Shown piece by piece: positions 3,937-44,300 of a stretch of DNA of 64,000 nt (positions are counted from its first letter, which is position 1; every line of letters starts with the position of its first letter). The DNA is from Acidobacteriota bacterium. GTDB lineage: Bacteria; Acidobacteriota; JAAYUB01. Location: the NCBI GenBank assembly GCA_018001935.1, contig JAGNHB010000018.1, positions 14,286-78,285 of the forward strand, in the 5' to 3' direction. The notes beneath the pieces were generated by a model, which had not been told where the DNA came from, did no database searches, and worked only from the letters and a program-made list of their open reading frames with translations. A program made the position numbers and the translations under genes.

Positions 3937-6843
<2,907 letters not shown>

Positions 6844-15437: not shown

Positions 15438-15480
15438 CGTCCCCAGCCGGGGACGGAGCGATCTGTTTTTCCGGGGCAGT
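15438..15480 (+). terminator. rho-independent terminator-like hairpin
   Basis: gctccgtcccc-agcc-ggggacggagc perfect 11-bp stem followed by gatctgttttt. Confidence 0.6.
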
Positions 15481-15660
15481 CAGAGCCGCGCGCGTAAGCA
15501 AGCGGCCATTTCTCCCTCAGAGCCGCGCGCGTAAGCAAGCGGCCATTTTCCCCTCAGAGCCGCGCGCGTGAGCAAGCGGCCATTTTACCTTCGTAAGCAA
15601 GCGTAAGAATTTCCATGATTTACCGCTCCCTAACGGTCGCGGCTCTGACTGTTTCCCGGA
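15470..15660. repeat. three tandem copies of an approximately 42-bp unit (cagagccgcgcgcgtaagcaagcggccatttt...) closed by an inverted arm (ggtcgcggctctg)
   Basis: read directly; the unit core GCCGCGCGCGTAAGCAAGCGG also occurs at 37012 and 52911. Confidence 0.8.
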
Positions 15661-15678: not shown

Positions 15679-17076
15679 TCAGGGGACCTCGCCCGAGGCG
15701 GCAGCGGGGTTTCCATTCCGGGGCGGGGCCGGCGCCCACGGGACCATGACGGAGACGGGGCCGTGGAAGGTGCGGGCCCCGGTGTCCTCGACGTCCTCGA
15801 GGCGGTACCAGTAACGGGTGCGGGGGAAAACGCCCGGGTCCGTGAAGGTGTACGCGGCCCCGCTGATCTCGGACTGTCCCCGGCCCGGGATGAGGGTCTC
15901 CGTGATCCGGGCGTAGGGCCCTTCTTCGGATTCCGCCCGCCAGAGGTGAAAGCCCGCGTTCCGGATCTCGGTTTCGGTGACCCAGTCCAGCCGGACCCCA
16001 CCCTGGCACGGCAGCGCCTCGAAGGAAACCAGTTCGACCAACAGCGGGGTGAGGTCCCGGGCCAGGCAGATGCGAAGGTCACTGCCGGAACCCGTCGGCG
16101 ACCCGCCGTAATACATCCGAAGGGACCCGTCTGGCGCGAGAATCACGTCCGGGGTGTAGGCCCTGCCCGCCCGGTAGGTCGGTGCACTGCCCCCCACGGC
16201 GAAGAGGGGGTTGTTGGCGTCCTTCGTCCAGGTGAGGCCGTCCGGGGACGAGGCGTAGCCGATCCCCTCGTGCGAGGCGGACTGGCCGCCGGAGTACCAG
16301 AGGTGGTAGCCGTTCTCGTCGCGGAAGACGGTGCCGAAGGTGGCGTAGGCGGCGTCCCACGACCCCGACCCGCCGTAGGGGAGAACCGCGCTCGTCGAGT
16401 AGGCGGTCCAGTCGATCCCGTCGCTGGAGTAGGCGAGGCCAAGGCTCTCCGTACCGCCGGAGGTCCCATCGTAGTACATCACGAAGCGGTAGTCCCAAGG
16501 GTCGGTTCCGCTGTTGGACGCGCCGGGTTGGTAGAGCACGCAGGCGGGACCGTAGCTGCCGCGGTTCCAGCCCGTCCCGGACATACCGGTGATGAGGGGG
16601 TTCGACGAACTCTGCGTGACGGCCTGGTCGTCGTCCCAGTCGATGCCGTCGCTCGATTGGGCGGTGTGGAGGTCGTCGAGGGTGTAGGTCATGTTGGACG
16701 TCCAGTACCAGACCCGATAGGGCGCTCCGCCGGTGATCCCGAACCCGTCGGCATCGTAGAGGACTTTGGCGTGCCCGGGGTTGGTCAGGCCCGTGGCGGA
16801 AACGGACGAACCCCAAGCCAGGCCGTCGGAGGACGTGACCATCCGGAGGGTGCCGCTCGCCCCGTACCACATCCGCCAGGTCGCCCCCCCCGACACGCCG
16901 AATGCCTCGTAATCGTAAAGAACGGAGGGGTAGTCCGCCCGCGAACCCGGGTCGACGAGCGGGTTGGCGGTGTAGTCCTCCCAGGCCGTGTAGTCGTGGT
17001 CCGCCCGGAGCGAGCCCACCAGGCAGAGGAAGGCGAGAACGAAGGCTGCCGACCGGATTTCACGCTGGGTTTTCAC
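15679..17076 (-). CDS. secreted BNR/Asp-box repeat beta-propeller protein (sialidase/glycosyl-hydrolase-like) with C-terminal beta-sandwich domain
   Basis: repeated Asp-box-like SSDGIDW, YSSDGIDWT, SSPDGLTWTK; GTG start at 17076 with GGAGG RBS and signal peptide. Confidence 0.7.
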   Translation of the reverse strand: MKTQREIRSAAFVLAFLCLVGSLRADHDYTAWEDYTANPLVDPGSRADYPSVLYDYEAFGVSGGATWRMWYGASGTLRMVTSSDGLAWGSSVSATGLTNPGHAKVLYDADGFGITGGAPYRVWYWTSNMTYTLDDLHTAQSSDGIDWDDDQAVTQSSSNPLITGMSGTGWNRGSYGPACVLYQPGASNSGTDPWDYRFVMYYDGTSGGTESLGLAYSSDGIDWTAYSTSAVLPYGGSGSWDAAYATFGTVFRDENGYHLWYSGGQSASHEGIGYASSPDGLTWTKDANNPLFAVGGSAPTYRAGRAYTPDVILAPDGSLRMYYGGSPTGSGSDLRICLARDLTPLLVELVSFEALPCQGGVRLDWVTETEIRNAGFHLWRAESEEGPYARITETLIPGRGQSEISGAAYTFTDPGVFPRTRYWYRLEDVEDTGARTFHGPVSVMVPWAPAPPRNGNPAAASGEVP

Positions 17077-17137
17077 GGGTGAAACGACCTCCGAGATTCG
17101 TGATGATGAAGGTTGATGCCCTCGAAAAAAGTCCTTT

Positions 17138-17223
17138 TCTCTCACGGAGGCACGGAGAGATGCAAATCGTATTTGATAGAATCAGCAATCCTTATATTTC
17201 TTCTCCGTGCCTTCGTGAGATCG
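17138..17223. promoter_or_regulatory. inverted pair of the conserved motif TCTCCGTGCCTCCGTGAGAGATGCAAATCG, 60-145 nt upstream of the 17076 gene
   Basis: the reverse copy at 17138-17169 is 30/32 identical to 37182-37213; a diverged forward copy lies at 17199-17223. Confidence 0.5.
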
Positions 17224-20299: not shown

Positions 20300-20400
20300 G
20301 GGAGGGTGCCCGACACGGAAATGGAACCACGAAATACACGGAAGACACGAAAGGGAAAAGAACCACGAACCACACCAACCACACGAACCGCCTCCGCGGT
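20300..20400. repeat. CACGAAC/ACCACACGAAC short tandem repeat block
   Basis: ggaaccacgaaatacacggaagacacgaaagggaaaagaaccacgaaccacaccaaccacacgaacc; related blocks at 46560-46640 and 63240-63300. Confidence 0.7.
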
Positions 20401-20619: not shown

Positions 20620-20680
20620 GCAGCCGCTGAAGCGCCTACCAGCCTTCAGCCTAACAGCCTTCAGCCTATCTCGCCTCCCC
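20620..20680. repeat. CCTTCAGCCTAACAG heptamer-pair repeat overlapping the stop of the 20666 gene
   Basis: cgcctaccagccttcagcctaacagccttcagcctatctcgcc; the TAG stop is inside cagcctatc. Confidence 0.8.
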
Positions 20681-21556: not shown

Positions 21557-21572
21557 CCGTATTCTGCGGTTC
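21557..21572. repeat. solo copy of the CCGCAGAATACG inverted-repeat motif overlapping the stop of the 21571 gene
   Basis: ccgtattctgcggttcagtg is the reverse complement of the motif flanking the GxxExxY gene. Confidence 0.6.
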
Positions 21573-23403
21573 AGTGAAGGATGGCGGCCAGGTCGGCGGC
21601 GGTGACGCGGCCGTCGCCGTCGGCGTCGCCGCCGGAGCCGCCGGGGGGCAGGTCGGGGACGTTCCCGGCCAGGAAGGCGGACAGAAGGACGAGGTCGGCG
21701 GCCGTGCGCCGGCCGTCGCCGTCCACGTCCCCGGGGTGGGGTTGCGACACCCGCAGGCGGGACGGGCGGGCCGCGTCCTGGTAGACGGTGTTTACGGCCG
21801 GCCACGCGGGCCCCGCGACGTACAGGGGCCCGCCGTCGTTGCGGTTCAGATCGAAGTGCGGGTAGTCGGCGGAGCAGACCGCGATCCGCAGGCGGTGACC
21901 CGGCAGGACCGTCAGCGCCAGGTCCTGGAGCGTCACCTCCACCTCGTAAACCGCGCCCGGCGCCATCAGGTGCTCCGCCGTGAAGCCGTCCCGGAAGCGC
22001 AGGCGCCGGATCCCCTGGGCCAGGATGATCGACCGCCCGTCGGGGTGGACATCGGTGAGCCGGACGCAGAGGTCGGTGTCCGTCCGGTCGGAGGAGAAGA
22101 ACAGGCCGGCTTTCACGCTGCCGTTGATCCGGAGGGGGACGGCCAGGGACGGCGTCGACCAGGTTCGCACGTCCGGCCGGCTCTCCACCGGTCCCAGGTC
22201 CTGGGGGCCCACCGGGAGGTCCGGGGCGAAGGGGTCGAATCGGGACCCGCCCAGGGCCGGGGTCGGGTCGGCGGGGTCGTAGGTGAAACGCTCCGGGGCG
22301 CCGTCCGACGGCGGGGGCGACCCGGTCAGCGTCCCGCCGGGTTGGAGGTAGAGGGCCGTCTCCACCCGCGCACGGTCGGACCAGCTCTCGCCGGCGACCC
22401 AGGCGTCGGCCCCCACCTGGTAGAAGGTGACGGGCGGCTCCGCGACCCACCCGTTGGCGACGTTCCGCAAATGGTAGTCCCAGAAGCGCACGGTTTTCGC
22501 CTCCGCCACGCCGGCGGCTGCGGGGAAGGTCAGAATTCCCTGCTCCGCCCGGTCCACCTCCCCGTGGAGCCAGGGGCCGAAGAGGAGGCGGTGCTGTTCC
22601 CGGGCCGGCGCCGCGCTGCCTTCCCGGAGGTCGCGGAAGCAGCGGAGGACGTCGTCGGGGAAGTGGTCGAACCAGCCGCCGATGACGTAGCAGGGGACGG
22701 CGATCTCCGCCGCCATGTCGGAATTGGCTTCCATGAGCGCCCAGAAGGCGTCCCGCATCGGGTGGGCGAGGATGAAGCCGGCGTCCGTCAGGCCGAGCTT
22801 TTCCAGGCTCTCCACGTGCTCTTTCCGGTAGTCGCCGCCGAAGTAGTAATCGGAGTACTTGAACAGGAAATCCTTGACCCGCGGGACGCAGCAGACCAGG
22901 TGGGGCGGGCGGTGCCGGGCGGTCTGGAACTGGATGTAGCCCAGGGCGGAGGAGCCCCAGGTCCCCACGCGGCCGTCGCACCAGGGTTGGGCGGCGACCC
23001 ACTCCACGGCGTCGTAGCCGTCAAGCCCGCGGTCGTAGCCGGGGACGGCGGCGGCCGAGGACCCGTAGAAGCCCCGCCAGTCCAGCACCACGTAGTGGTA
23101 GTCCGCCGAGAGGGGGAACATCCCGCCGCTCTGGGGCGGAAAACCCGCCATGGCCCGGTAGAAGTTCTTGTTGTAGGGCGTTTGGATCAGGATCACCGGC
23201 CGGGGGACGGGGGTGGCCCCGTCGAAGGTGTGGACGTCCGCCGCCAGGGCCTTCCCGTCCCGGGTGGGAATGGACACGGCGGTCCAGGTGAGCCCGCGCG
23301 GGGAGGAGGGCCCCGCGCCGGCGCCCGTCCCGGCCGGCAGCGCCCCGCCGGCGACGCACAGGGAAAACAGCAGCACCCGGGTGAAGCGGTGTCGCGATAA
23401 CAA
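21571..23403 (-). CDS. CocE/NonD family (S15 X-Pro dipeptidyl-peptidase-like) hydrolase with C-terminal dockerin
   Basis: VILIQTPYNKN and GRVGTWGSSALGYIQ; C-terminal DVDGDGRRTAADLVLLSAFLAGN plus DADGDGRVTAADLAAIL dockerin repeats; TTG start at 23403 with GGGAGG RBS and signal peptide. Confidence 0.75.
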   Translation of the reverse strand: MLSRHRFTRVLLFSLCVAGGALPAGTGAGAGPSSPRGLTWTAVSIPTRDGKALAADVHTFDGATPVPRPVILIQTPYNKNFYRAMAGFPPQSGGMFPLSADYHYVVLDWRGFYGSSAAAVPGYDRGLDGYDAVEWVAAQPWCDGRVGTWGSSALGYIQFQTARHRPPHLVCCVPRVKDFLFKYSDYYFGGDYRKEHVESLEKLGLTDAGFILAHPMRDAFWALMEANSDMAAEIAVPCYVIGGWFDHFPDDVLRCFRDLREGSAAPAREQHRLLFGPWLHGEVDRAEQGILTFPAAAGVAEAKTVRFWDYHLRNVANGWVAEPPVTFYQVGADAWVAGESWSDRARVETALYLQPGGTLTGSPPPSDGAPERFTYDPADPTPALGGSRFDPFAPDLPVGPQDLGPVESRPDVRTWSTPSLAVPLRINGSVKAGLFFSSDRTDTDLCVRLTDVHPDGRSIILAQGIRRLRFRDGFTAEHLMAPGAVYEVEVTLQDLALTVLPGHRLRIAVCSADYPHFDLNRNDGGPLYVAGPAWPAVNTVYQDAARPSRLRVSQPHPGDVDGDGRRTAADLVLLSAFLAGNVPDLPPGGSGGDADGDGRVTAADLAAILH

Positions 23404-23540
23404 GGCAGGCCTCCCGTCTCGAAAAAACCGGTGGGGATTGCACAGACGCACGTGCCCCCTCGCAGCGTTCAACCTTCGAGGCCCGGAAAGGTTCCAGATG
23501 TTTTTCGCCAACGCCAAATGCCGTTGCCGGCTGGTCGGAG

Positions 23541-23672
23541 GAAAAGGACAAAAGGACCAAAAGGACATAAAGGACGGCACGGAGGGCAAACGGGTTACCC
23601 TGCGGACGCCCCTGCCCCCACCTGCTGTTATGAAGTCCTTTAAGTCCTTTAAGTCCTTCAAGTCCTTCCCGG
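23541..23672. repeat. inverted pair of AAAGGAC heptamer arrays with an approximately 56-nt loop
   Basis: ggaaaaggacaaaaggaccaaaaggacataaaggacgg ... gtcctttaagtcctttaagtcctttaagtccttcaagtcc. Confidence 0.85.
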
Positions 23673-23766
23673 GCGAAACGGTCCCGTGGGGGGAAGGCGG
23701 GAAAGCCACCGGCCTGGCCGCGTCGCGGCTGCAGGAACAGAAGCCGCCCCCCTCCCTCGGCCGCCG

Positions 23767-23845
23767 CCCCGATCGCCGCCGCCCATCGTCGCCCCCCGAT
23801 CGCCGCCGCCCATCGTCGCCCCCCCCGATCGCCGCCGCCCGCTGA
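23767..23845. repeat. three tandem copies of an approximately 28-bp unit CCCGATCGCCGCCGCCCATCGTCGCCCC
   Basis: read directly in the 5' region of the 23915 gene. Confidence 0.85.
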
Positions 23846-23914
23846 AAATGTTTGGCCGGTCCGGCGTTTTGTACTATCATGACTTGGAAAATTCGACGGT
23901 TGCGGGGAACGGCC

Positions 23915-26143
23915 ATGAGCAAATCGTACAGGCATGTCGGGCAGTCGGTGAGGCGGGGTGACGTGGAGGCCAAGATCCGGGGGACGGCCGGCTTCGGCGT
24001 GGACATCACCCCGCCGGGCTGCCTGTGGGGACGGGTCGTCCGGGCGAATGCGCCGCACGGGCGGATGAAGAAAATCGCCTTCGACCCCGCCTTCGACTGG
24101 GCCGGGTTCACCCGGCTGACGGCGGACGACGTCCCGGGGAAGAAAATCCTCCCTTACTTCCTCCAGGACCAGCCCTTCCTGGCGTTCGACACGGTGAAGT
24201 TCCCGGGCGACCCCGTGGCGCTGCTGGCCCACGAGGACCCGGACGCCCTGGAGAGGGCCCTGTCCCATGTCCACGTCGAGGTGGAGCCGCTCCCCGCCGC
24301 CTTCACCATCGAGGACTCCCTGGCGCTCGAGGCCGCCCTCTGGGAGGGGGACAACGTCTTCTGGGAGGTCCTCATCTCCAAGGGCGACCCGGGGCCGGTC
24401 CTGACGGGGCCGGGCGTCACCGTCTTCGACGAGGTCTACGAGACCGGGTCCCAGGAGCAGCTCTACCTCGAACCCCAGAACGTCATCGCCTTCAACGAGG
24501 ACGGGCGGATCCGCATCCTGGGGAGCATCCAGTGCCCCTACTACGTGAAACCCGGCGTGGAGGCCGCGCTGGGCGAACCCGTGGACGTGGAGCAGTCCAC
24601 CACCGGCGGCGCCTTCGGCGGCAAGGAGGACTACCCCACGCTCCTGGCGGCGTGGGCGGCCATGCTGGCGAAGAAGTCGGGGCGGACCGTGAAGATGGTT
24701 TTCGACCGGGACGAGGACTTCGCCTACACCACCAAGCGGCACCCCTCCCGGACCCGCGTCCGCTCCGCCGTGGGGCCGGACGGGAAGCTCCTGGCCATGG
24801 ACATCGACTTTGCCCTGGACGCCGGCGCCTACTGCACCCTCTCGCCGGTGGTCCTCTCGCGCGGCGCCCTCCACGCGGGGAGCGCCTACCTCTGCCCGAA
24901 CCTGCGCATCCTGGGGCGGGCGGTGGCCACCAACACCCCGCCCACGGGCGCGTTCCGCGGGTTCGGCGCCCCCCAGGGCCTCTTCGCCGTGGAGCGCCAC
25001 ATGGACGTCATGGCCCACCGCCTGGGCCGCGACCCCTTGGAATTCCGGCGCCTGAACCTGTTGCGCAACGGCGACACCAACGCCACCGGGCAGCTCTTCC
25101 GGTGGGAGAAGAACCTCCACGGCGTCCTGGACCGCGCCCTCGAGCTTTCCCGCTTCGAGGAGACCCGAAAGGCCGCGGAGGAGAACAACCGCTCCGACGC
25201 GTGGCGCAAGCGAGGTGTGGGCCTTTCCCTGTTCTTCCACGGGAGCGGGTTCACCGGCAGCGGCGAGACCAAGATGCGGAGCGTTGCCCGGCTGGAGGCG
25301 GACCCGGAAGGGTTCGTCGTCATCCGCGTGTCCAGCGTGGAGATGGGGCAGGGGGCCCGGACGGTCCTGGCCCAGATGGTGGCCGAGACCATGGGGATCG
25401 GCCTCGACCAGGTCCGCTACCCCAACCCCGACACGGCCCGGGTCCCCAACACGGGCCCCACGGTGGCGTCGCGCACCACGGCCGTGGTGGGCGGCATCCT
25501 GGTGAAGGCCGCGGAGGCCCTCCGCCGGCGCATCGAGGACGTCACGGGGCGTGTCTGGGAGGACGGCGAGGGCTTTGCCCGGACCCTTCGGGCGGTCCCG
25601 TACGGCATCGTGCCCCTGGCGGAGGACGCGGTCTACGAGCCGCCGCCGGGGCTGGTCTGGGACGAGGAGACCTTCCGCGGCGAGGCCTACGCCGACTACG
25701 CCTGGGCCTGCTACGTGGCCGAGGTGGAGGCGGACCTGCGGGACTACACCGTGACGGTGAAAACCTTCACCGCCGTCCAGGACGTGGGCACCGTCATCCA
25801 CCCCGAGCTGGCCCGCGGGCAGGTGGAAGGGGGCGTGGTGCAGGGGATCGGCTGGACGCTCACCGAGAAGGTCCACTTCAAGGACGGCCGGGTCCTCAAC
25901 CCCGGGTTCTCCGACTACATCATCCTGACCCCCGCGGACCTTCCCGAACTCCGGGTGGACTTCGTCCAGAACCCGTCCCCTCACGGGGGGTATGGGGCCA
26001 AAGGGCTCGGCGAACTCCCCATGGACGGCCCGGCGCCGGCCATCCTGGCCGCCCTGCACCAGGCCCTGGGCCGGGAGTTCAACCGCATCCCCCTGACCCC
26101 GTCCGACCTGTTCCGGGAGCTGGAGACGGACGGAAAATCGTGA
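23915..26143 (+). CDS. xanthine dehydrogenase / aldehyde oxidase family molybdopterin-binding subunit (CoxL-like)
   Basis: a/b hammerhead and MoCo-binding domains (GFGGKED, TLSPVVLSRGALHAGSAY, AFRGFGAPQG, GQGARTVLAQMVAE); no FAD or Fe-S subunit adjacent. Confidence 0.85.
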   Translation: MSKSYRHVGQSVRRGDVEAKIRGTAGFGVDITPPGCLWGRVVRANAPHGRMKKIAFDPAFDWAGFTRLTADDVPGKKILPYFLQDQPFLAFDTVKFPGDPVALLAHEDPDALERALSHVHVEVEPLPAAFTIEDSLALEAALWEGDNVFWEVLISKGDPGPVLTGPGVTVFDEVYETGSQEQLYLEPQNVIAFNEDGRIRILGSIQCPYYVKPGVEAALGEPVDVEQSTTGGAFGGKEDYPTLLAAWAAMLAKKSGRTVKMVFDRDEDFAYTTKRHPSRTRVRSAVGPDGKLLAMDIDFALDAGAYCTLSPVVLSRGALHAGSAYLCPNLRILGRAVATNTPPTGAFRGFGAPQGLFAVERHMDVMAHRLGRDPLEFRRLNLLRNGDTNATGQLFRWEKNLHGVLDRALELSRFEETRKAAEENNRSDAWRKRGVGLSLFFHGSGFTGSGETKMRSVARLEADPEGFVVIRVSSVEMGQGARTVLAQMVAETMGIGLDQVRYPNPDTARVPNTGPTVASRTTAVVGGILVKAAEALRRRIEDVTGRVWEDGEGFARTLRAVPYGIVPLAEDAVYEPPPGLVWDEETFRGEAYADYAWACYVAEVEADLRDYTVTVKTFTAVQDVGTVIHPELARGQVEGGVVQGIGWTLTEKVHFKDGRVLNPGFSDYIILTPADLPELRVDFVQNPSPHGGYGAKGLGELPMDGPAPAILAALHQALGREFNRIPLTPSDLFRELETDGKS

Positions 26144-26241: not shown

Positions 26242-26475
26242 ATGGTTCAAGCACTGAAGGAAAAAACGACGGTTCAGGCCGGAGGAACCATTCATCTTGA
26301 AATCCCGGGGCTTACTCCGGGAACACCCGTTGAAGTCGTCGTTTATATCGAAAGCAATTCAACCCCGAAGAAAAACTCTCTTGCAAACAGGGTCGGATCC
26401 GCCAAGGGAGGGTTTTATTCACCCGAAGCGGTTGACGGGTTTCTGTCACAGGAGCGCGGTGCGTGGGAAGATTGA
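26242..26475 (+). CDS. vapB: type II antitoxin VapB-like
   Basis: small ORF MVQALKEKTTVQAGGTIHLEIPGL... immediately upstream of and overlapping a PIN gene. Confidence 0.7.
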   Translation: MVQALKEKTTVQAGGTIHLEIPGLTPGTPVEVVVYIESNSTPKKNSLANRVGSAKGGFYSPEAVDGFLSQERGAWED

Positions 26476-26900
26476 GCGAGTTCTTCGGGAAAAAGATCTA
26501 TCTCGATACAAACGTATTGATCTATGCACTCGAAGGGTTCCCGGATTATTCCGGAGTTCTGACGGCTCTGTTCCAGGCGGTCGATCAGGAGCTTTTGAGG
26601 GCTTTCACCAGCGAGTTGACCATTGCGGAAGTGTTGGTGAAGCCATTCATTGATCGAAACCGGGAGAGGGAACATGCCTATCTGGAACTCTTTGACGGTT
26701 CCGGGCCCCTTCACGTCGAACCGGTTACCCGCAGCATCCTGATCGAGGCCGCCCGATTGCGGGCTTTGCACCCCCTTCGCCTTCCGGATGAAATTCACCT
26801 GGCAACCGCTTTTTTTTCAGAGTGTTCTTTCTTTATCACCAATGATTTCCGCATCAACCCCGTCTCCGGTCTGGATGTCATCCGTTTAAGCGAACTGTAA
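26463..26900 (+). CDS. vapC: PIN-domain toxin VapC
   Basis: KIYLDTNVLIYAL with conserved acidic residues, ITNDF; GTG start overlaps the vapB stop; locally lower GC. Confidence 0.8.
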   Translation: MGRLSEFFGKKIYLDTNVLIYALEGFPDYSGVLTALFQAVDQELLRAFTSELTIAEVLVKPFIDRNREREHAYLELFDGSGPLHVEPVTRSILIEAARLRALHPLRLPDEIHLATAFFSECSFFITNDFRINPVSGLDVIRLSEL

Positions 26901-28666: not shown

Positions 28667-28918
28667 TCATTCGTCCCCCGTCTCTTCCCGCCGTTCCGCG
28701 AGGAAAGCGTCCACGACGCCCGAGGGCTTTTGCCCGCCGTAGAGGCGATTAACCCACTCCGCAAGCGATTCACGAGGCCGGGCATCCTCTTCCGGACGGC
28801 AGGACTCGGTCAGGATCGCCCGGGCCTCCGCCTCCATGCTCCGATTGGCCCGGGCCGCCCGGAGCCTCGGCCGCGCATGGACCTCCGTTGGGAGATTCTG
28901 GATATTCAGGGTCGCCAT
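28667..28918 (-). CDS. RHH-type antitoxin (FitA/VapB, plasmid-stability family)
   Basis: MATLNIQNLPTEVHARPRLRAARANRSMEAEARAIL matches the Arc/MetJ-type antitoxin consensus. Confidence 0.7.
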   Translation of the reverse strand: MATLNIQNLPTEVHARPRLRAARANRSMEAEARAILTESCRPEEDARPRESLAEWVNRLYGGQKPSGVVDAFLAERREETGDE

Positions 28919-31572: not shown

Positions 31573-31639
31573 GGGATTCCCCTTGATTTCAGTGTTCGGC
31601 GATTCGGTGGCGCGAGAACGAAGTCAGGAGTCAGGAGGA

Positions 31640-31815
31640 AGAGGAGGGATGGGAATAGTGGGAGTTATGGGAATTCTGGGAGTTGTCAAGATGTGGGAGG
31701 AAAGGGGAGAGAAAGGGGCAAGAAGAGGCAAGAACCCCCCAGGCTCCCGCAATTGCCACGAATCCCATAATTCCCATAACTCCCATCATTCCCATCATTC
31801 CCATTCTCCCCTCAC
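31640..31815. repeat. inverted pair of 9-nt tandem arrays (GGGAATGAT/GGGAGTTAT versus CCCATAATT/CCCATCATT) between the ATPase and permease genes
   Basis: gggaatagtgggagttatgggaattctgggagttg ... cccataattcccataactcccatcattcccatcattccc. Confidence 0.85.
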
Positions 31816-31828
31816 CCTGCGCCAACCC

Positions 31829-32530: not shown

Positions 32531-32539
32531 GATATGTTC

Positions 32540-32925
32540 CTCCACTCGGAGCTGTTTTTCGATGGGCATGGGATGTTTATCGGAGTCGGAAAAGGACGAA
32601 AGGACCAAAAGGACCAAAAGGACCAAAGGGACGGCAAGAACCGAAAAACATGAAAGATATGAAAGACATGAAAGACATGATCCCCAACCTCCAGCCCTGG
32701 CCTTCCGCCTTGTGTCTGCAACATCTTTCCGCCTCGTGTCTCCGACAAGCCTTCCGCCTCGTGTCTCCCGCAAACCTTCCGCCTGTTTCCCTTGCGATGC
32801 CGATTGCGATGCCGATTGCGACTGCGATTGCGACTGCGATTGCGATACCGATACCGATACCGATTCCGACCCCGATGGGAAGATCCCCGGACCTTCAGCC
32901 TAACAGCCTTCAGCCTAACAGCCTA
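32540..32925. repeat. composite repeat element: AAAGGAC x5, ATGAAAGAC x3, approximately 21-nt CCTTCCGCCTCGTGTCTCC x3-4, GATKGCGA/GATACC hexamer array, CCGATGGGAAGATCCCCGGACC linker, TTCAGCCTAACAGCC x2
   Basis: read directly; fills the whole 390-bp spacer between macA and the ATPase gene; the macA TAG stop lies in the terminal cagcctac. Confidence 0.9.
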
Positions 32926-37080: not shown

Positions 37081-37181
37081 TTGCCGCGGTAACTTTCGGG
37101 CCTGCAATAGCCCGGATTCTGATCTCACTGAGGCAGGGAGACACGGGGAAGAACCCTTACGATTGTTGAGCCCGTCAGATC

Positions 37182-37215
37182 CGATTCGCATTTCTCCGTG
37201 CCTCCGTGAGAGATG
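37182..37215 (+). promoter_or_regulatory. conserved 32-bp motif CGATTCGCATTTCTCCGTGCCTCCGTGAGAGA, 47-78 nt upstream of the sensor-kinase start
   Basis: 30/32 identity to the reverse complement of 17138-17169, which sits at a similar distance upstream of another gene. Confidence 0.5.
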
Positions 37216-37259
37216 AATACGCTTTACCGGGCCGTCAGACTGACTCGACAGGGGCGCCG

Positions 37260-40200
37260 ATGTCTCAACCGAACGAGAACGGGTATCCCACGGTTCCGGG
37301 GCGCCGCCCGGGAAGCCGGCGCGGGCGAATCCCCGGCTGCCCGGAGCCGTCCGGGCCCGCCCGCTTCGCCCTTCCCGCTCTTTTCACCCTGGTGGGGGCC
37401 CTCCTGTGGGCGCCCTTGATCCACGCCCGCGGCAAGGACCTGCTGTTTAACCACCTCTCCCTGGAGGAGGGGCTCTCCCAGGTCTCGGTCACCTGCATCA
37501 TCCAGGACCGGAAGGGGTTCATGTGGTTCGCCACCGAGGGCGGCCTGAACCGCTACGACGGCTACCGTTTCGTCAACTACCGGCACCGGCCCGCCGACCC
37601 GGGCTCGCTGGCCGACAACGCCGTCCACGCCCTGCTGGAGGATCGCCGGGGGAACCTCTGGGCCGCCGCGGGGACCCGGGGCCTGGATCGGCTCGACCCG
37701 GAGTCGGGGGCCTTCGACCATTTCCTGCCCGACCCCCCCAACCCCAACAGCCTGAGCGACGGGCAGGTCACCGCGCTCCTCGAGGGGGGCGCCGCCTCCT
37801 CCCCCTTCCTCTGGATCGGGACCCTCAAGGGGGGGATGCAGCGGCTGGAGGTCAACCGGCGTCGGTTCACCACCTACCGCCACCTCCCGGACGACCCCGG
37901 GAGCCTCGGCCACGACACGGTCAACGGCATCCTCGAGCAGCCGGGGAGCGGCGGCAACGTCCTGTGGGTCGCCACCGCCGGCGGCCTGGACCGCTTCGAC
38001 GTCCGGCTCAACCGCTTCACCCACTTCCGGGCCGGCCCGGGGGGGCTGAGCCACGATCACGTGAAGGCCATCGCGTTCACCGACCCTTTGACCCTCTGGG
38101 CGGGAACGCTCGGGGGCGGTCTCAACCGGCTCGACCTCCGGACCGGTGCGGTGACGGTGTTCCGGAAGGTGGAGCAGGACCCCGCGAGCCTCAGCGACGA
38201 CTTCGTCAACGTCCTGCTCCGCGACTCCGCCGGCCGGCTCTGGGTCGGCACCGACAAGGGGCTCAACCTCCGGGTGGAGGACCCGCCGGGCTTCGTCCGC
38301 TTCCTCCACAACCCCTTCTTCTCCGCCGGGCTCAACGACAGCATGATCGTCTCCCTCTGCGAGGACCGTTCCCAGGTCCTCTGGGTGGGGACGTGGAGCG
38401 GCGGCATCAACAAGGCCGACAACAAGGCCCCGATGTTCACGGCCGTGCTCCAGCGGCCGGGTGAAGCGAATTCGCTGATCCACAACACCGTGAGGGACAT
38501 CGTGCAGGACCGCCGGGGCGCCCTCTGGATCGGGACCACCGAGGGCCTGGACCGGTACGACCGGGCGACGGGCGTCTTCACCCACTTTCTCCGGGACCCT
38601 GCCCGTCCGGACAGCCTCAGTTTCAACTACGTCCTCGACCTCTACGAGGACGGCCAGGGGACGCTCTGGGTCGGGACCATGCGGGGCCTCAACCGCTACG
38701 ACGACCGCACGGGGGTGTTCCGGCGCCATTTCCACGACCCCGCGAACCCCGCGAGTCTCAGCTCCGACGAGATCCAACGGGTGATCGACGACCCGGTCGA
38801 GCCCGACCGGTACCTCTGGGTCGGGACCCGGGACCGCGGGCTGAACCGCTTCGACAAGGCGACCGGGGCGTGCGTCCGCTACCTGCACGACCCGGGCAAC
38901 CCCCTGAGCATGGGGAACGACAAGGTGTACGCTCTTCTTCCCGCGGGCGGCGGGAAGCTGTGGGTGGGGACCTGGGAGGGGCTCGACCGCTTCGATCCCG
39001 GCACGGGCGTCTTCGAGCACTTCCCCAGCGACCCGGGCAACCCCGCATCCCTGAGCAACGGGCGGGTGACCTGCATCGAGCGCGACCCCTCCGGGCACGC
39101 CGACGTCCTGTGGGTCGGGACCTGGGGCGGCGGCCTGAACCGGTTCGACGTGAAGGCCCGCACCTTCCGGAGCTACTCGGAGAACACGGGGTTCCCGTCC
39201 GACCTGGTGTCCGGCGTCCTGGCGGACGGCGACGGCAAGCTCTGGGTCAGTTCCCCCCGGGGCGTGGCCCGGTTCGACCCCGCCACCGGGGAGGCCCGGG
39301 CCTACACGGTCCCCGTGGGGGAGAAAAACAACGCCTACAACGGGGGGGCTTTCTTCCGGGGCGCGGACGGGGAGATGTTCTTCGGCGGGCTGTGGGGAAT
39401 GACGAGTTTCTTCCCCCGGAACGTCCGGGACAACCCCCACGTGCCGCCGGTGGTCCTGACCTCGTTCCGGGTGTTCAACCGGGAAGCCGCGCTTCCCCGG
39501 CCGCTTTCGGAGACCCGGGAGATCGTCCTCTCCCACGCCGACAAGTACCTCGCCTTCGAATTCGCGGGCCTGGAGTACACCGCACCGGGCCGGAATCGGT
39601 ACAAGTTCCGCCTGGAGGGGTTCGACGCCGACTGGGTCCAGACCGATGCCGGCCACCGGACGGCCACCTACACCAACCTGGACCCGGGCGAGTACACCTT
39701 CCGGGTCATCGCCTGCAACAACGACGGCGTCTGGAACCCGGAGGGCGTGTCCGTCCGGGTCGTCGTCGTGCCACCCTTCTGGCGGACCACCGGCTTCCGG
39801 GTCCTGACGGCGGCCGTGCTGGTGCTGGCCGTCTTCGGGCTCTACCGCCTGCGGGTCCGCCACATCCGCCGGCGGGCGCGCGAACTGGAGGAAACCAACC
39901 GGGTCCTGAACCGGGAGGTCCTCGAGCGGCAGCGGGCGGAGGCGCAGGTCCGCAAGAGCGAGCAGCGGCTCCTGACCTTCCTGGAGACCGCCCAGGAAGG
40001 CTTCATCGAGGTGGACGAGCAGGAGATCGTCCTGGACGTGAACCCGGAGCTGTGCCGGATCATGGGCCGCCCCCGGGAGGAACTCCTGGGCCGGAGCTTC
40101 TTCGACTTCATCCGCCAGGAGGACCTGGAGAGCTTCCAGGAGGAGGTGGGGAGGCGGGCGAAGGGGAAGACGGGCTCCTACGCCCTCACGCTCATCAAGC

Positions 40201-41513
40201 CCGACACCACCCCCGTCCACTGCCTGGTGAACGCCTCGCCCCTCTTCGACCCGGACGGCCGCCGGCGGGGCTCCTTCGCCCTGGTCACCAACATCACGGA
40301 GATGAAGCAGGCGGAGGCCCAGCTCCGGCAGGCCCAGAAGATGGAGACCATCGGCACCCTGGCCGGCGGGCTCGCCCACGACTTCAACAACGTCCTGGGC
40401 GGCATCTCGGGGACGCTGTCGGTCATCAAGTTCAAGTACCGCGGCAAATCGTCCATCGGCGTCCAGGAACTGGAGCCGCACCTCCGGGTCATGGAGGAGG
40501 CTTCCGCACGGGCGGCGGACATGGTGAAGCGGCTGCTGACCCTGTCCCGGCAGCAGGAACTGGCCTTCGAGAGCGTGGACCTCGGCGTGTCGGTGTCCAA
40601 CGTGATTACCCTCTGCGAGAACACCTTCGACAAGTCCATCGGGATCCGGTGGTCCCCGCCCGCGGAAGCGGCCCGGGTCCGGGCGGACGCCACGCAGGTG
40701 GAGCAGGTCCTCCTCAACCTCTGCGTGAACGCCTCCCACGCCATGACCCTCATGCGCCCGGAGACGGATCCGCCGGGGGGGACCCTGACGGTGTCCCTGC
40801 GGAAAATCCTCTCCGACAAGATCTTCTGCTACACCCACCCCGAGGCCGGGGAGCTGAAGGCGTTCTGGGTGGTCAGCATCAGCGACACGGGCGTGGGGAT
40901 GAGTTCGAAGATCATCGCCAAGATGTTCGACCCCTTCTTCACCACCAAGCAGAAAGGGGTCGGCACGGGGCTCGGCCTGTCCACGGTCTACAGCATCGTC
41001 CAGCAGCACGGCGGCTTCATCGACGTCTACTCCGAGCCCGGCATCGGCTCCACCTTCAACGTGTACTTCCCCGTCCCGGCGGGCGAGAAGGCGGGCGGGG
41101 CGGGGGCCGGGGAGGAGGAGCCCCTCCCGCGGGGCACCGGGACCATCCTGGTGGTGGATGACGAGAAGGCCATCCGCGACGCGGCGAAGGCCTTCCTGGA
41201 GTACTGCGGGTACACGGTCCTGCTGGCCGGGGACGGCCTGGAGGCGGTGGACGTCTTCCGCGCCCGGCACGCGGAGATCCGGGTGGTCCTGCTGGACGTG
41301 GTGATGCCGCGGATGTCCGGGCGGGAGGCTTTCCTCGAGCTGCGAAAGATCCGGCCGGACGTGCGGGTCATTGTTGCCTCCGGTTTCCAGATTGACGGCC
41401 GGGTCCGGTCGCTCCTGGACCTGGGCGCGCAGGACACCATCCACAAGCCGTTTGCATTAAACGAATTAGCCCACAAGATCGCCGCCCTCGCCCCCGACTT
41501 TACCGCCGAGTAA
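37260..41513 (+). CDS. hybrid sensor histidine kinase / response regulator with periplasmic two-component-regulator beta-propeller repeats and Y_Y_Y domain
   Basis: many LWVGT/GGLNR propeller repeats, TM helix, coiled coil, PAS, HisKA (LAHDFNNVLGGI), HATPase_c (ISDTGVGM...GTGLGLS), REC (ILVVDDE...VLLDVVMP). Confidence 0.85.
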   Translation: MSQPNENGYPTVPGRRPGSRRGRIPGCPEPSGPARFALPALFTLVGALLWAPLIHARGKDLLFNHLSLEEGLSQVSVTCIIQDRKGFMWFATEGGLNRYDGYRFVNYRHRPADPGSLADNAVHALLEDRRGNLWAAAGTRGLDRLDPESGAFDHFLPDPPNPNSLSDGQVTALLEGGAASSPFLWIGTLKGGMQRLEVNRRRFTTYRHLPDDPGSLGHDTVNGILEQPGSGGNVLWVATAGGLDRFDVRLNRFTHFRAGPGGLSHDHVKAIAFTDPLTLWAGTLGGGLNRLDLRTGAVTVFRKVEQDPASLSDDFVNVLLRDSAGRLWVGTDKGLNLRVEDPPGFVRFLHNPFFSAGLNDSMIVSLCEDRSQVLWVGTWSGGINKADNKAPMFTAVLQRPGEANSLIHNTVRDIVQDRRGALWIGTTEGLDRYDRATGVFTHFLRDPARPDSLSFNYVLDLYEDGQGTLWVGTMRGLNRYDDRTGVFRRHFHDPANPASLSSDEIQRVIDDPVEPDRYLWVGTRDRGLNRFDKATGACVRYLHDPGNPLSMGNDKVYALLPAGGGKLWVGTWEGLDRFDPGTGVFEHFPSDPGNPASLSNGRVTCIERDPSGHADVLWVGTWGGGLNRFDVKARTFRSYSENTGFPSDLVSGVLADGDGKLWVSSPRGVARFDPATGEARAYTVPVGEKNNAYNGGAFFRGADGEMFFGGLWGMTSFFPRNVRDNPHVPPVVLTSFRVFNREAALPRPLSETREIVLSHADKYLAFEFAGLEYTAPGRNRYKFRLEGFDADWVQTDAGHRTATYTNLDPGEYTFRVIACNNDGVWNPEGVSVRVVVVPPFWRTTGFRVLTAAVLVLAVFGLYRLRVRHIRRRARELEETNRVLNREVLERQRAEAQVRKSEQRLLTFLETAQEGFIEVDEQEIVLDVNPELCRIMGRPREELLGRSFFDFIRQEDLESFQEEVGRRAKGKTGSYALTLIKPDTTPVHCLVNASPLFDPDGRRRGSFALVTNITEMKQAEAQLRQAQKMETIGTLAGGLAHDFNNVLGGISGTLSVIKFKYRGKSSIGVQELEPHLRVMEEASARAADMVKRLLTLSRQQELAFESVDLGVSVSNVITLCENTFDKSIGIRWSPPAEAARVRADATQVEQVLLNLCVNASHAMTLMRPETDPPGGTLTVSLRKILSDKIFCYTHPEAGELKAFWVVSISDTGVGMSSKIIAKMFDPFFTTKQKGVGTGLGLSTVYSIVQQHGGFIDVYSEPGIGSTFNVYFPVPAGEKAGGAGAGEEEPLPRGTGTILVVDDEKAIRDAAKAFLEYCGYTVLLAGDGLEAVDVFRARHAEIRVVLLDVVMPRMSGREAFLELRKIRPDVRVIVASGFQIDGRVRSLLDLGAQDTIHKPFALNELAHKIAALAPDFTAE

Positions 41514-41628
41514 GAACAGCCGCACAAAACCCGAAAAAAAACTCGGAATTTCTTCCGCAGAAACGTTGATATAGGAGGGAGTGATTGCCCTGAGGTCATG
41601 ATTCTTCCCGTCGGCGATGATCTGTTCT

Positions 41629-41655
41629 GAACCGCAGAATACGCAGAACACGCAG
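41629..41655 (+). repeat. left inverted repeat GAACCGCAGAATACGCAGAACACGCAG flanking the GxxExxY gene
   Basis: about 21/27 identity to the reverse complement of 42328-42354. Confidence 0.7.
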
Positions 41656-41806
41656 ATGTAGAAGTGTAGCGATTATAGGGTTTGAGGATGGAAAGAGGTG
41701 ATGCCAGAGATGAGAAGAGAATTCGTGAAGGGGGTGGAAGAGATTTGAAAGATGTGGGAAGTGGGCCGGAGGAGGGTGTGAAAAGAACTTGAGGAAGAGG
41801 AGGTGG

Positions 41807-42262
41807 ATGATGGGGGTCAGGCAGAGTGCTTCCGATTCGGACGGTTTTCCTTTGAAAGACGAGGGATACGCAATCCTGGGTGCCGTGTTTGAAGTGTACA
41901 AGGTGATGGGGTGTGGTTTCCTTGAGGCTGTTTACCAGGAGTGCCTCGAGTACGAGTTCGAAGACCGGGGAATTCCCTTCGAGGCGAACCCGAACCTCAC
42001 CATCGATTTCAAGAAGCGACGCTTGAAGAGGAAATATCAACCTGATTTTCTGTGTTTCAGCCAGATTGTGGTGGAACTCAAAGCGGTCTCGGCGCTGATT
42101 CCCGAGTATCGTGCCCAGCTTCACAATTACTTGAAAGTTTCCGGCATGACCGTCGGTTACCTTGTCAATTTCGGGCATTTCCCCCTTGTGGAATACGAAC
42201 GCATCATCCGGACCGACCCGGAGAAGGGACGCCAAAACGGGAGCACGAACGGGGAACCGTGA
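41807..42262 (+). CDS. GxxExxY family protein (PD-(D/E)XK nuclease superfamily)
   Basis: LKDEGYAILGAVFEVYKVMGCGFLEAVYQECLEYEF...QPDFLC...IVVELKAV; strong GAGGAGG RBS; AT-richer flanks. Confidence 0.75.
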   Translation: MMGVRQSASDSDGFPLKDEGYAILGAVFEVYKVMGCGFLEAVYQECLEYEFEDRGIPFEANPNLTIDFKKRRLKRKYQPDFLCFSQIVVELKAVSALIPEYRAQLHNYLKVSGMTVGYLVNFGHFPLVEYERIIRTDPEKGRQNGSTNGEP

Positions 42263-42327
42263 TGGCCTTCCGATGACACCATCTCCGTCTCTCAGATAGA
42301 CCGAAAAAATAGATAATATAACTCTTT

Positions 42328-42354
42328 CTGCTTATTCTGCGTATTCTGTGGTTC
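42328..42354 (-). repeat. right inverted repeat (reverse complement GAACCACAGAATACGCAGAATAAGCAG) flanking the GxxExxY gene
   Basis: ctgcttattctgcgtattctgtggttc; overlaps the stop codon of the sensor kinase gene. Confidence 0.7.
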
Positions 42355-43774
42355 ACTCAGGATTGGGCGGGGGGGGAGGTGCTGGGGCGGGGAGGGCGGG
42401 GATGCGGACCCGGAACACCGCCCCCTGGCCCGGCTCGCTCTCCACTTCCACGCTCCCCCGGTGCAGCTCCACCAGGTCCTTGACGATGGAGAGCCCCAGG
42501 CCCGTGGAGTGCTCGCCGCCCGTCGGCCGGGCGCTGAGGCGCTGGAATCGCCCGAAGACCCGCTCCCGGTCGCCCTCCGACAGGCCGGGCCCCCGGTCGT
42601 GGACCTCGAAGCGGACTTCCCCGTTCTCCCGGCACAGCCGCAGGAAAATCACCCCCCCCGGCGGCGAGAACTTGACGGCGTTGCTCACCAGGTTGTCCAT
42701 GACCTGCTGGAGGCGCAGCCGGTCCCCCCGCACGCGACACCCCTCCCCGGGCTCCAGCACGAGGGTCTGCCCCTTTCGCGCCGCCAGCGGCCGGTTGAGG
42801 CTGACCACCGACTCCGCCAGCGGCCCCAGGAGCAGTTCCTCCTCCACCAGCTGGAGGCGGCCGGTGTCGATGACCACGGTGTCCAGCAGCTCGTTGATGA
42901 GGGTCACCATCTTCTCGGAGGCGCTGATGATCATCTCCAGCTGTTCGATCCCCTTCCGGTCTTCCTTGATCCGCCGCCGGAGAAGTTTCGAGAACCCGGT
43001 CACGACCTGGAGCGGGTTCTTCAGGTCGTGGGCGGCGACGGCGAGGATGGAACTCTTGAGGTCGTTCACCTGCCGAAGTTCCTCGTTGGTCCGCCGCAGC
43101 TCGTCGGCCGTGGTCTCCAGGCTCCGGTTGGCCTCCATGAGCTTCAGCTGCACCCGTTGGAGCTGGATGTTGCTCAGGTGGATGGTCTGCTGGGCGACGA
43201 AGTTGTCGCGGCGGGCCCGTTCGAGGAGAACGGCCGCCACGACGGCGATGAGCGTCGCCTCGGCGAAGTTGAACAGCCCGTAGAGCCGCTGGGGGGTGTC
43301 GAAGCGCATCCCCCGGCACAGGCCAAGGGCGGCGAAGAGGGCGATGGAAAGGGCGATCAGCCACAGGGAATTCTTGCGGCCCAGGGGCGCCATGGGGAGG
43401 ATCAGCAGGATGATGCTGAAGCCGCCGAGGTACACGGGGTCGCCGCCCACCAGCCCGAGGATGGCGCCGGCCGAGAGGTTCAGGTAGGCGAAGAGGGCCA
43501 GGAGGAGGACGTGGCTGTTCTCGCGGACCCGGGGGAGGGCCAGCAGGGCGAGGACGCCGGCCCCGACGACGGTGAGGCCGAGCCTCAGGGCGGTCACGAG
43601 GTCGTTGCCGGGGAAGAGATGGCGGTCCACCAGGAGGAAGGGGATCCAGGCCGCCAGGGAGGCCAGGGCGGCGGGCAGCACCAGGGGCCGGCTCAGGCGC
43701 TCCAGGTCCATCCCGAAGGCGTAGTCGCCGAACAGTTCCTCGTGCCCCGCGAGGTCGGGCGCGTCGTCGTGCAT
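42353..43774 (-). CDS. membrane sensor histidine kinase (orphan, no cognate regulator adjacent)
   Basis: 6 TM helices, coiled coil, HisKA AHDLKNPL, HATPase_c N/G boxes (HDRGPGLS, GLGLSIV); ATG at 43774 with GGAGG RBS. Confidence 0.8.
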   Translation of the reverse strand: MHDDAPDLAGHEELFGDYAFGMDLERLSRPLVLPAALASLAAWIPFLLVDRHLFPGNDLVTALRLGLTVVGAGVLALLALPRVRENSHVLLLALFAYLNLSAGAILGLVGGDPVYLGGFSIILLILPMAPLGRKNSLWLIALSIALFAALGLCRGMRFDTPQRLYGLFNFAEATLIAVVAAVLLERARRDNFVAQQTIHLSNIQLQRVQLKLMEANRSLETTADELRRTNEELRQVNDLKSSILAVAAHDLKNPLQVVTGFSKLLRRRIKEDRKGIEQLEMIISASEKMVTLINELLDTVVIDTGRLQLVEEELLLGPLAESVVSLNRPLAARKGQTLVLEPGEGCRVRGDRLRLQQVMDNLVSNAVKFSPPGGVIFLRLCRENGEVRFEVHDRGPGLSEGDRERVFGRFQRLSARPTGGEHSTGLGLSIVKDLVELHRGSVEVESEPGQGAVFRVRIPALPAPAPPPPPNPE

Positions 43775-43949: not shown

Positions 43950-44300
43950 CTTCGCGATCTTGGCGCCTTGGCGAGAGCCGACCCGGATCTTGATCTCGTA
44001 AAGGCGCAAAGATCGCAAAGGAAGACTGCAAAAGGAAGGGAGAAGATCGAGGGTTGCGGGCTGTAGTCGACAAGGGGGCCGCCGATCCCGGTCGCGAGCG
44101 CGTCCCCGGTCGAGTGCGACAGCGCGTGCGAGTGCGGCTGCGACAGCGCATGCGATTGCGATTGCGATTGCGATTGCGACGGCGATTGCGACGGCGATTG
44201 CGATACCGATAGCGATTGCGATACCGACCCCGATACCGATACCGACCTCGATGGGAACCCCTCCGGACCTACAGCCTACAGCCTATAGCCTACAGCCTAA
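43950..44300. repeat. composite repeat element: GCAAAG block, long GCGAYWGCGA/GATACC hexamer array, CTCGATGGGAACCCCTCCGGACC linker, CCTACAG x4
   Basis: read directly; lies immediately downstream of the 44312 gene. Confidence 0.9.

Follow-up and report, generated by a model that had tools for sequence, protein, structure and literature searches.

The 510-bp spacer at positions 23404-23914 of a 64-kb stretch of DNA (64,000 nucleotides, referred to here as the window) from contig JAGNHB010000018.1 of an Acidobacteriota bacterium separates two divergently transcribed genes and contains, at 23539-23670, a hairpin built from inverted arrays of the heptamer AAAGGAC. An initial annotation had described the spacer as a control region whose only sequence features were repeats, with both promoters embedded in or between them. 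The features of the locus are the following.

21571-23403, minus strand: gene encoding a protein with the Pfam domains Peptidase_S15, PepX_C and Dockerin_1, with a TTG start at 23403
23539-23577, plus strand: 5' arm of the hairpin, four AAAGGAC units parted by the spacers A, CA and AT, the exact units starting at 23543, 23551, 23560 and 23569
23578-23632, no strand: loop of about 55 nt, G+C-rich, with a predicted inner stem, unique in the window
23633-23670, minus strand: 3' arm of the hairpin, AAGTCCTTT twice and then AAGTCCTTC twice, with a 9-nt period, the reverse complement of AAAGGAC units
23762-23840, plus strand: local 27-nt minisatellite found by Tandem Repeats Finder, 2.8 copies with 94% matches, C-rich on the plus strand
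23852-23880, plus strand: candidate sigma-70-like promoter, TTGGCC-17-TATCAT, a consensus match only
23915-26143, plus strand: gene for a xanthine-dehydrogenase-family molybdopterin subunit, with its ATG at 23915

The two flanking genes, the peptidase-type gene on the minus strand and the xanthine-dehydrogenase-family gene on the plus strand, are those that had been announced, and GGGAGG stands before the TTG start of the former, which is also the start in the public gene call. The inverted heptamer arrays are equally genuine. Opposite the four AAAGGAC units (23543-23575) are four GTCCTT(T/C) units (23635-23667), the latter consisting of GTCCTTT at 23635-23641 and 23644-23650 followed by GTCCTTC at 23653 and 23662. 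Unit periods are 8-9 nt in the arms, for both of which Tandem Repeats Finder reported a period of 9 and 3.9-4.0 copies, and the measured lengths, about 38-39 nt for the arms and about 55-59 nt for the interval between them, agree with the 37-39 nt and 56 nt originally given. Within the window AAAGGAC occurs 26 times, versus 6.25 ± 2.5 times in shuffled sequences (an approximately 4-fold excess). When the segment 23530-23680 (151 nt) was folded as RNA, each strand had a predicted energy between -65 and -71 kcal/mol (z = -4.76; none of 200 shuffles was as good), and its folding as DNA gave z = -2.8. Complementarity between the arms does not include their spacers, and the predicted stem is therefore a succession of 7-bp helices parted by small internal loops. 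The hairpin was found, 100% identical to the window, in two Logan short-read contigs from different runs (L243 and L244), and it is therefore not an assembly artefact.

A first piece of information about the nature of this hairpin comes from the window itself, where AAAGGAC clusters at four intergenic loci, the three others being these.

32589-32636, plus strand: single AAAGGAC array of five units, a paralogue of the hairpin arms, between co-directional HlyD-like and ABC-ATPase genes, inside an apparent macB/ABC-ATPase/HlyD operon
46722-46768, plus strand: single AAAGGAC array of five units, between two co-directional minus-strand genes
51520-51740, no strand: second inverted AAAGGAC pair, five units at 51522-51563, a 133-nt loop and five units at 51697-51738, with the same polarity as 23539-23670

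What recurs in the window is limited to the AAAGGAC arms, a module of about 45 nt, the loop at 23578-23632 having no second copy. The six arms can be aligned with a common unit order, AAAGGAC-G-AAAGGAC-CA-AAAGGAC-CN-AAAGGAC, which indicates that they are copies of one module of about 45 nt and not independent products of slippage.

The hairpin is, moreover, one copy of a dispersed family with a fixed polarity and a conserved core that extends from this window across phyla. In a search of one genome per species, three AAAGGAC units parted by 1-3 nt were met at no fewer than 120 loci (at least 120), with matches in Thermoanaerobaculia, other Acidobacteriota, Hydrogenedentota, Chlamydiae, Planctomycetota, Verrucomicrobiota, Chloroflexota, cyanobacteria, Gammaproteobacteria and others, and among the matches listed nearly all had 2-nt spacers. 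When a relaxed array finder was applied to the matches listed, 38 inverted pairs were recovered, typically with 4-6 units per arm and a median loop of about 25 nt; the window loops of 59 and 133 nt stand at the long end of this distribution. In 34 of the 38 pairs it was the AAAGGAC arm that lay on the 5' side and the GTCCTTT arm on the 3' side (binomial p about 6e-7). Four loci (L111, L108, L043 and L053) are perfect palindromes, including spacers and flanks. In the partner arms, which had escaped selection by the search pattern, core positions were 73-93% conserved and spacer bases near uniform, adjacent spacers being identical in just 58 of 314 cases, and slippage of whole units would not yield such a combination of conserved core and free spacers. 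We defined the family by the core AA(A/G)GGAC, at least three units per arm, a phase of about 9 nt, variable spacers, an AAAGGAC arm 5' of a GTCCTTT arm and a four-helix-bundle-suffix gene (TIGR04258), placed beside complete copies and elsewhere in the genome for solos; the window hairpin has 4 + 4 units with 8-9-nt periods and carries its plus arm 5' and its minus arm 3'.

By context, heuristic gene calls placed the inverted pairs among the matches listed in roughly 8 convergent, 17 tandem and 8 divergent positions, that is, in the approximate 1:2:1 ratio of random intergenic placement, with no enrichment at divergent promoters. At low-G+C loci, according to the same kind of gene calls, arrays were mostly found just after stop codons (13 convergent and 2 divergent contexts). 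Single arrays showed no strand bias relative to transcription, and many single AAAGGACNN arrays in other genomes, for instance in a Rhodanobacteraceae genome bin, are homogeneous 9-mers. As a control, 116 loci from viral contigs (L127-L242) matching an AAAGGAC-N2 pattern were inspected. Single arrays predominated in them, and roughly half were located within open reading frames of 250 codons or more; no hairpin of AAAGGAC-5' polarity was present among these pattern-matched contigs. The viral in-frame arrays, which encode Lys-Gly-X, may be collagen-like repeats; they are a phenomenon distinct from the bacterial hairpins.

A second observation was the specific link between this hairpin family and a single small gene, itself highly conserved. 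Arrays 0.25-7 kb apart were sought as the ends of an autonomous element, and among the matches listed only one locus qualified, in a member of the Nitrospirales (L057), where a plus array and a minus array enclose a small open reading frame of a four-helix-bundle family. Homologues of its product, 67-72% identical, adjoin AAAGGAC arrays in Pirellulaceae, Hydrogenedentota, Parachlamydiaceae and a Clostridia bin. In the reverse test, 80 metagenome loci were picked solely by homology to the four-helix-bundle protein (66-80% identity), and 55 of the 80 had AAGGAC-type arrays of at least three units within 600 nt of the gene, with none elsewhere in the flanks of ±2 kb. Both arm types were found within 220 nt upstream of the gene in 43 of 76 cases, versus none of 86 control windows, and loci scored as negative still presented short AAGGAC hairpins just before the ribosome-binding site. 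Over the 80 loci (242 kb), Tandem Repeats Finder counted 85 arrays of the AAGGAC type versus 19 other short-period arrays. The link was also found in the cultured Geobacter sp. SVR and Thioalkalicoccus limnaeus.

Two layouts were recognised, one with a hairpin before the gene and a second hairpin after its stop codon, the other with a plus array and a minus array enclosing the gene. Between the end of the final GTCCTT unit and the ATG of the gene there are usually 17-30 nt, so that the hairpin should be transcribed with the gene, as part of the 5' untranslated region. Gene-linked copies and solo hairpins coexist in single genomes, namely JAUIMA01 (L016 and L075) and CAWDEQ01 (L032, L058, L085 and L111). 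In the first of these, a Hydrogenedentota bin, hairpins at 1147-1381 and 1964-2135 of L016 flank the four-helix-bundle gene and have a common loop of about 150 nt; repetition of the hairpin interior as well was seen in no other case.

The encoded protein is about 188 residues long (about 183-198) and 66-80% identical across phyla. It scores 69-72 bits against TIGR04258, the four helix bundle suffix domain (cut-off 40), and 29 against TIGR02436 (cut-off 24), and it belongs to the S23p or 23S-rRNA-intervening-sequence protein family (PF05635/TIGR02436), which comprises at least 8000 clusters at 90% identity. The closest 120 homologues retrieved were all at least 75% identical, too close for protein clade to be compared with repeat unit. 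A sequence search of solved structures gave no match for this protein; its AlphaFold model is all-helical, with a predicted local distance difference test (pLDDT) score of 88, and its best match among solved structures was 2RLD, of the S23 ribosomal protein family, with a probability of 0.92-0.99 and weak E-values.

All these observations could be integrated by assuming that the hairpin at 23539-23670 represents a solo copy, lacking the gene, of a repeat element that is dispersed and has spread horizontally, a reading to which we assign a probability of about 0.6. The window copy would then stand to the complete, gene-bearing copies as a solitary REP (repetitive extragenic palindromic) sequence stands to one that flanks a REP-associated tyrosine transposase (RAYT) gene, or as an intervening sequence of 23S rRNA devoid of cargo stands to one with its gene. 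In the proposed mechanism, the phased heptamers would be read by the four-helix-bundle protein or by a host factor, with AAGGACNNN and NNNGTCCTT arrays as putative targets, and the hairpin would act as RNA, given that next to its gene it must lie in the 5' untranslated region. The most likely role of the element at 23404-23914 is that of a passenger tolerated by the spacer, not of a dedicated operator, and it could impose structure on a long 5' leader if the promoter of the peptidase gene lies to its right.

Several points weigh against this reading. The loop of the window copy, 55-59 nt, is long compared to the median of 25, and its spacers are non-complementary, so that the copy could be old or degenerate. 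No four-helix-bundle gene or remnant of one was found in the 64-kb window, the loop at 23578-23632 included. Neither target-site duplication nor presence/absence polymorphism was seen among the inspected copies, and mobility is thus deduced solely from the dispersal of the hairpins and the cross-phylum identity of the protein. The genome scan, with its at least 120 loci, included no control heptamer in the same collection, and for this reason the recurrence of the bare motif across phyla weighs less than the polarity and the gene link. The gene calls behind the analysis of contexts were heuristic, and the binding of protein to the arrays and the RNA processing of the hairpins are both putative.

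The element can be compared with several known systems. REP sequences and the bacterial interspersed mosaic elements (BIME) that they form, with their RAYT genes, in E. coli and Pseudomonas, are likewise short extragenic palindromes present in many dispersed copies, found as mosaics with other modules and as inverted hairpin pairs, with a low-copy protein gene flanked by repeats and most copies solo. Dispersed, extragenic, imperfect palindromes of this sort were found in the window (four loci in 64 kb, with the fold z of -4.76 given above). However, the protein here is a four-helix bundle of the S23p/Avd-like kind, with no known catalytic motif, instead of a Y1 HUH transposase, and Pfam scans of the window genes detected no transposase domain (Y1, IS200/IS605-like RAYT). 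The arms, in addition, are tandem heptamers in 9-nt phase, whereas a REP is a single palindrome of 20-40 nt, and, unlike in REP/RAYT systems, both the AAGGAC unit and a 66-80% identical protein span many phyla.

The intervening sequences of 23S rRNA, known from Leptospira and Coxiella burnetii, are selfish, horizontally acquired elements with S23p genes, and in Coxiella it is RNase III that excises them (PMC4990558). They also have inverted termini forming a long stem around an optional PF05635/TIGR02436 gene, and they exist in cargo-less versions (PMC4990558). A stem of this type is predicted at the window copy, and the S23p-family open reading frame, present in complete copies elsewhere, is absent from it. 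In contrast to those elements, which occupy helix 25 or 45 of 23S rRNA, the window copy lies between protein-coding genes; no Rfam 15 covariance model matched at its gathering score anywhere in the 64 kb, which means that the window contains no rRNA. Differently from the rRNA elements, too, the AAGGAC stems are made of repeated heptamers and the protein has TIGR04258 as an additional suffix domain.

A protein of the same structural kind is Avd, of diversity-generating retroelements, a positively charged pentameric four-helix-bundle barrel 'similar to S23 ribosomal proteins', in which five protomers grip an RNA stem-loop (bioRxiv 10.1101/2023.10.23.563531). The typical 4-6 units per arm would suit an oligomer of this sort, and recognition of RNA by the TIGR04258 protein is plausible by analogy, but no reverse transcriptase, template repeat or variable repeat lies near the AAGGAC elements. 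With BOX elements of Streptococcus pneumoniae and miniature inverted-repeat transposable elements (MITEs), the hairpins have in common that they are modular, dispersed and intergenic, with variable internal tandem modules. They differ in having no related transposase and no common terminus beyond the unit, and a MITE reading was rejected in view of the missing target-site duplication at the flanks of inspected copies and of loops that are not conserved, except in the neighbouring pair of L016. Finally, long simple-sequence repeats, including the short tandemly repeated repetitive (STRR) heptamers and the TAACTGA repeats of Beggiatoaceae, are also intergenic tandem units of 5-11 nt common to distant phyla, and for repeats of the TAACTGA type there is no known transfer mechanism and no known function (PMC4679880). 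Those are, however, mostly homogeneous direct arrays, while AAGGAC combines a conserved core, free spacers, inverted pairs of fixed polarity and a tie to a gene. The association of AAGGAC arrays with this gene appears new, although its kind is already known, either as dispersed palindromic repeats tied to a flanked gene or as selfish elements resembling intervening sequences. In the literature on the motif, the short-unit repeat classes and the two gene families concerned here, of which our coverage was incomplete, no description of the arrays or of the gene link was found.

The alternative that survives best, although we consider it improbable, is plain slippage, under which the arrays would be functionless long simple-sequence repeats of the type described in Burkholderia, Xanthomonas and the cyanobacterial STRR sequences, inverted by template switching and with no real link to a gene. 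Such a notion is in keeping with a window full of short-period arrays of many unrelated units, with the homogeneity of many single AAAGGACNN arrays in other genomes, and with the documented occurrence of repeats of 5-11 nt, heptamers being the commonest in the passage of PMC4679880 that cites Mrazek 2007. Yet slippage copies whole units, and here cores are kept while spacers vary in both sequence and length; nor would it lead one to expect a polarity of 34:4 or a tight link to a single gene clade. The unit number was also invariant between two sequencing runs, assemblies and not reads having been compared, which makes this weak evidence. A phase-variable contingency locus was rejected, considering the heterogeneous spacers and the identity of the two runs (again weak, being derived from assemblies only).

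Next in order, and unlikely as well, is a structure adopted by the host at the RNA level, such as a bidirectional terminator or insulator, an RNase III site or a stabiliser of mRNA ends, acting independently of the four-helix-bundle protein. REP elements in E. coli play roles of this kind. The predicted hairpin is very stable on both strands, and its purine arm at the 5' side and U-rich arm at the 3' side provide, on both strands, the A-rich lead and U-rich tail of bidirectional terminators. The position of low-G+C arrays after stop codons would fit, and so would the excision by RNase III of 23S rRNA intervening sequences that carry S23p reading frames (PMC4990558). Against it, the approximate 1:2:1 distribution of contexts is that of random intergenic placement, a divergent spacer offers no incoming transcript to terminate unless promoters overlap, and the spacers of the window copy are unpaired. 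An intrinsic terminator was discarded because no terminator-like site (a short G+C-rich stem, a loop of 3-8 nt and a T run) was found in 23300-24000. A role as terminator or processing hairpin is possible for the class as a whole.

The view of the initial annotation, that of a locus-specific divergent control region in which heptamer arrays and 27-nt repeats serve as operators or promoter elements of the peptidase gene, the xanthine dehydrogenase gene or both, we hold to be quite unlikely. It has in its favor the length of the spacer, which at 510 bp and by the mere geometry of divergent genes must hold both promoters, as had been claimed, and the resemblance of a conserved core with free spacers to protein-binding sites. 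For the minus-strand peptidase gene, neither a relaxed TTGNNN-16/18-TANNNT pattern nor a sigma-54 pattern had any match in the spacer region, and its promoter could be unconventional. Nevertheless, the only sigma-70-like match in 23300-24000, that at 23852-23880, lies downstream of all repeats and 35 nt before the ATG of the xanthine dehydrogenase gene, and is probably its promoter, judging by the consensus match. The repeats are consequently not the only sequence features of the spacer, as had been stated, and the one promoter-like site falls outside every repeat instead of in or between them. The implied role of the repeats as control elements of these two genes finds no support, the arms being copies of a dispersed module; a locus-specific reading is a poor fit because the module recurs at three other sites of the window, two of them between co-directional genes and hence in non-promoter contexts, and it is weakened further by the lack of enrichment in divergent spacers across genomes and by the tie of the hairpins elsewhere to a small gene of a different family, and not to peptidase or xanthine dehydrogenase genes.

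For the xanthine dehydrogenase protein, beyond an identical one from a metagenome-assembled genome labelled 'Acidobacteria bacterium', the nearest homologues are 57-62% identical and belong to operons of xdhC, large subunit, Fer2 and FAD genes (L002 and L004) with no common upstream region, and this different gene order leaves no orthologous spacer for comparison. In the window, the large subunit gene (23915-26143) stands alone; a PIN-domain gene and one for an LpxD-like acyltransferase come after it. A coding explanation for the spacer was also considered, since open frames cross it and a 99-residue gene call on L243 overlaps it; both lack the signature in G+C content at third codon positions (GC3) of the real genes of this genome and were treated as spurious.

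Very unlikely indeed is the binding of a host protein with general affinity for single strands, for example CsrA or one of the cold-shock proteins. The evidence is one of resemblance: GTCCTTT agrees at 6 of 7 positions with the optimum of Bacillus subtilis CspB, for which the consensus reads 5'-GTCTTTG/T-3' and C is strongly preferred at position 3 (PMC1904285). AAGGA, for its part, is similar to the motif of CsrA or to a Shine-Dalgarno sequence, and a 7-nt site with a 2-nt linker suits a beads-on-a-string arrangement. Against it, many unrelated units form similar array pairs, the link to the four-helix-bundle gene is specific and single arrays have no strand bias.

Returning to the preferred reading of a solo copy, it can be extended, tentatively and with clearly less confidence, to the concept that AAGGAC hairpins and the four helix bundle suffix protein constitute an unrecognised, cross-phylum selfish system built like REP/RAYT. 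In it, an Avd-like oligomeric protein that is not a transposase would read the phased heptamers, as RNA or as single-stranded DNA, and would promote or accompany their spread; thousands of solos, the window copy among them, would be its footprints, and different clades of small intervening-sequence genes (four-helix-bundle and GxxExxY nuclease) would each have their own unit. If true, clade-specific units would explain the mosaic of array types in the intergenic DNA of this genome, and the link would account for much of the repeat-filled intergenic DNA in Acidobacteriota, Hydrogenedentota, Planctomycetota, Chlamydiae and others. To our knowledge, no function is known for the four-helix-bundle (S23p) and GxxExxY families, which have thousands of members, and phased AAGGAC hairpins would offer a specific and testable cis partner, opening the function of these families to experiment. 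For annotation purposes, such hairpins should not be taken as locus-specific regulatory regions.

The direct repeats that accompany the hairpin appear to be a separate, local minisatellite, no further copies of which were found in the window. They had been described as three 28-bp units abutting the start at 23915. The core, GATCGCCGCCGCCC, is indeed present three times, at 23771, 23798 and 23827, but the period is 27, the array amounts to 2.8 copies with the third one truncated, and it stops 74 nt short of the ATG. Copy number is the least certain part of this region, because short-read contigs break inside the repeat (23795/23796). Public short-read contigs of the same samples (L243, L244 and L001) end at 20641, 23669, 23795/23796 and about 32090, and contig ends fall at or inside a CCTACAG array, the right arm of the hairpin and the 27-nt repeat. 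Of the contigs with the four-helix-bundle gene, many extend over just 1-2 kb, in keeping with breaks caused by arrays. Arrays explain why short-read assemblies break at such sites in these genomes.

Short-period arrays of several unit types, some of them inverted pairs, fill nearly every long intergenic region of the window. Two other arrangements with inverted units are these.

41627-42357, plus strand: cassette of a GxxExxY gene (TIGR04256, PD-(D/E)XK/PDDEXK_3) at 41807-42262, within inverted 28-nt ACGCAGAAY arrays at 41627-41657 and 42324-42357
31649-31804, no strand: inverted pair of short units, ATGGGAAT in 3.7 copies and TCCCATAAT in 4.7 copies, between macB-like and ABC-ATPase genes

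The GxxExxY cassette has low GC3, lies in a convergent spacer and shares its layout with the four-helix-bundle cassettes, from which it differs in gene family and in unit. The macB-like, ABC-ATPase and HlyD-like genes, which are normally close together, are parted here by spacers of 256 nt (31573-31828) and 392 nt (32531-32922) that consist almost entirely of tandem arrays, holding the ATGGGAAT/TCCCATAAT pair, AAAGGACC, GAAAGACAT, a 25-mer in 3.4 copies, hexamers and heptamers. A composite element follows directly after the stop codons of minus-strand genes at 20634-20668, 32792-32925, 44111-44299 and 54499-54638, and in part at 51739-51800. Its parts are an array of hexamers (CGATAC or TTGCGA type), a junction, CCGATGGGAAC.CCTCCGGACCT, that is unique and conserved, and an array of the heptamers CCTACAG or CCTTCAG; these heptamers carry TAG or TGA, and the stop codon of the HlyD-like gene lies inside the array.

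Nonamer arrays of CACGAACCA were seen at 20328-20389 and 63262-63285, and also in an intergenic region (5975-5995) of L002, from a 61%-identical relative (GCA_964412195.1), so that some repeat units are common to distant acidobacterial relatives. The 318-nt spacer at 6526-6843, upstream of the NAD-dependent DNA ligase gene, is composed of a 14-mer in 5.9 copies, GTCAGACCT in 11, ACCCCAG in 5.7 and CCTAAAG in 4.4. The gene itself, ligA (3937-6525, with a product of 862 residues), contains in its 5' coding part a 21-nt tandem repeat (6397-6481) encoding peptide repeats of the EIDAD type, and the match to the adenylation domain is split in two stretches, which suggests an insertion. A further tandem repeat, of 37 nt in 2.9 copies with 95% matches (TCAGAGCCGCGCGCGTAAGCAAGCGGCCATTTTCCCC), occupies 15480-15586 in a convergent spacer, and the open reading frames at 15679-17181 and 37170-41513 have upstream extensions where related sequence of the 'FLRASVR' type was noticed. 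Small accessory genes of low GC3, encoding a PIN-domain protein, a FitA-like ribbon-helix-helix protein, an MntA-like nucleotidyltransferase and a DUF4143 fragment, are located at 26463-26900, 28667-28918, 52023-52415 and 61127-61702, among array-rich spacers.

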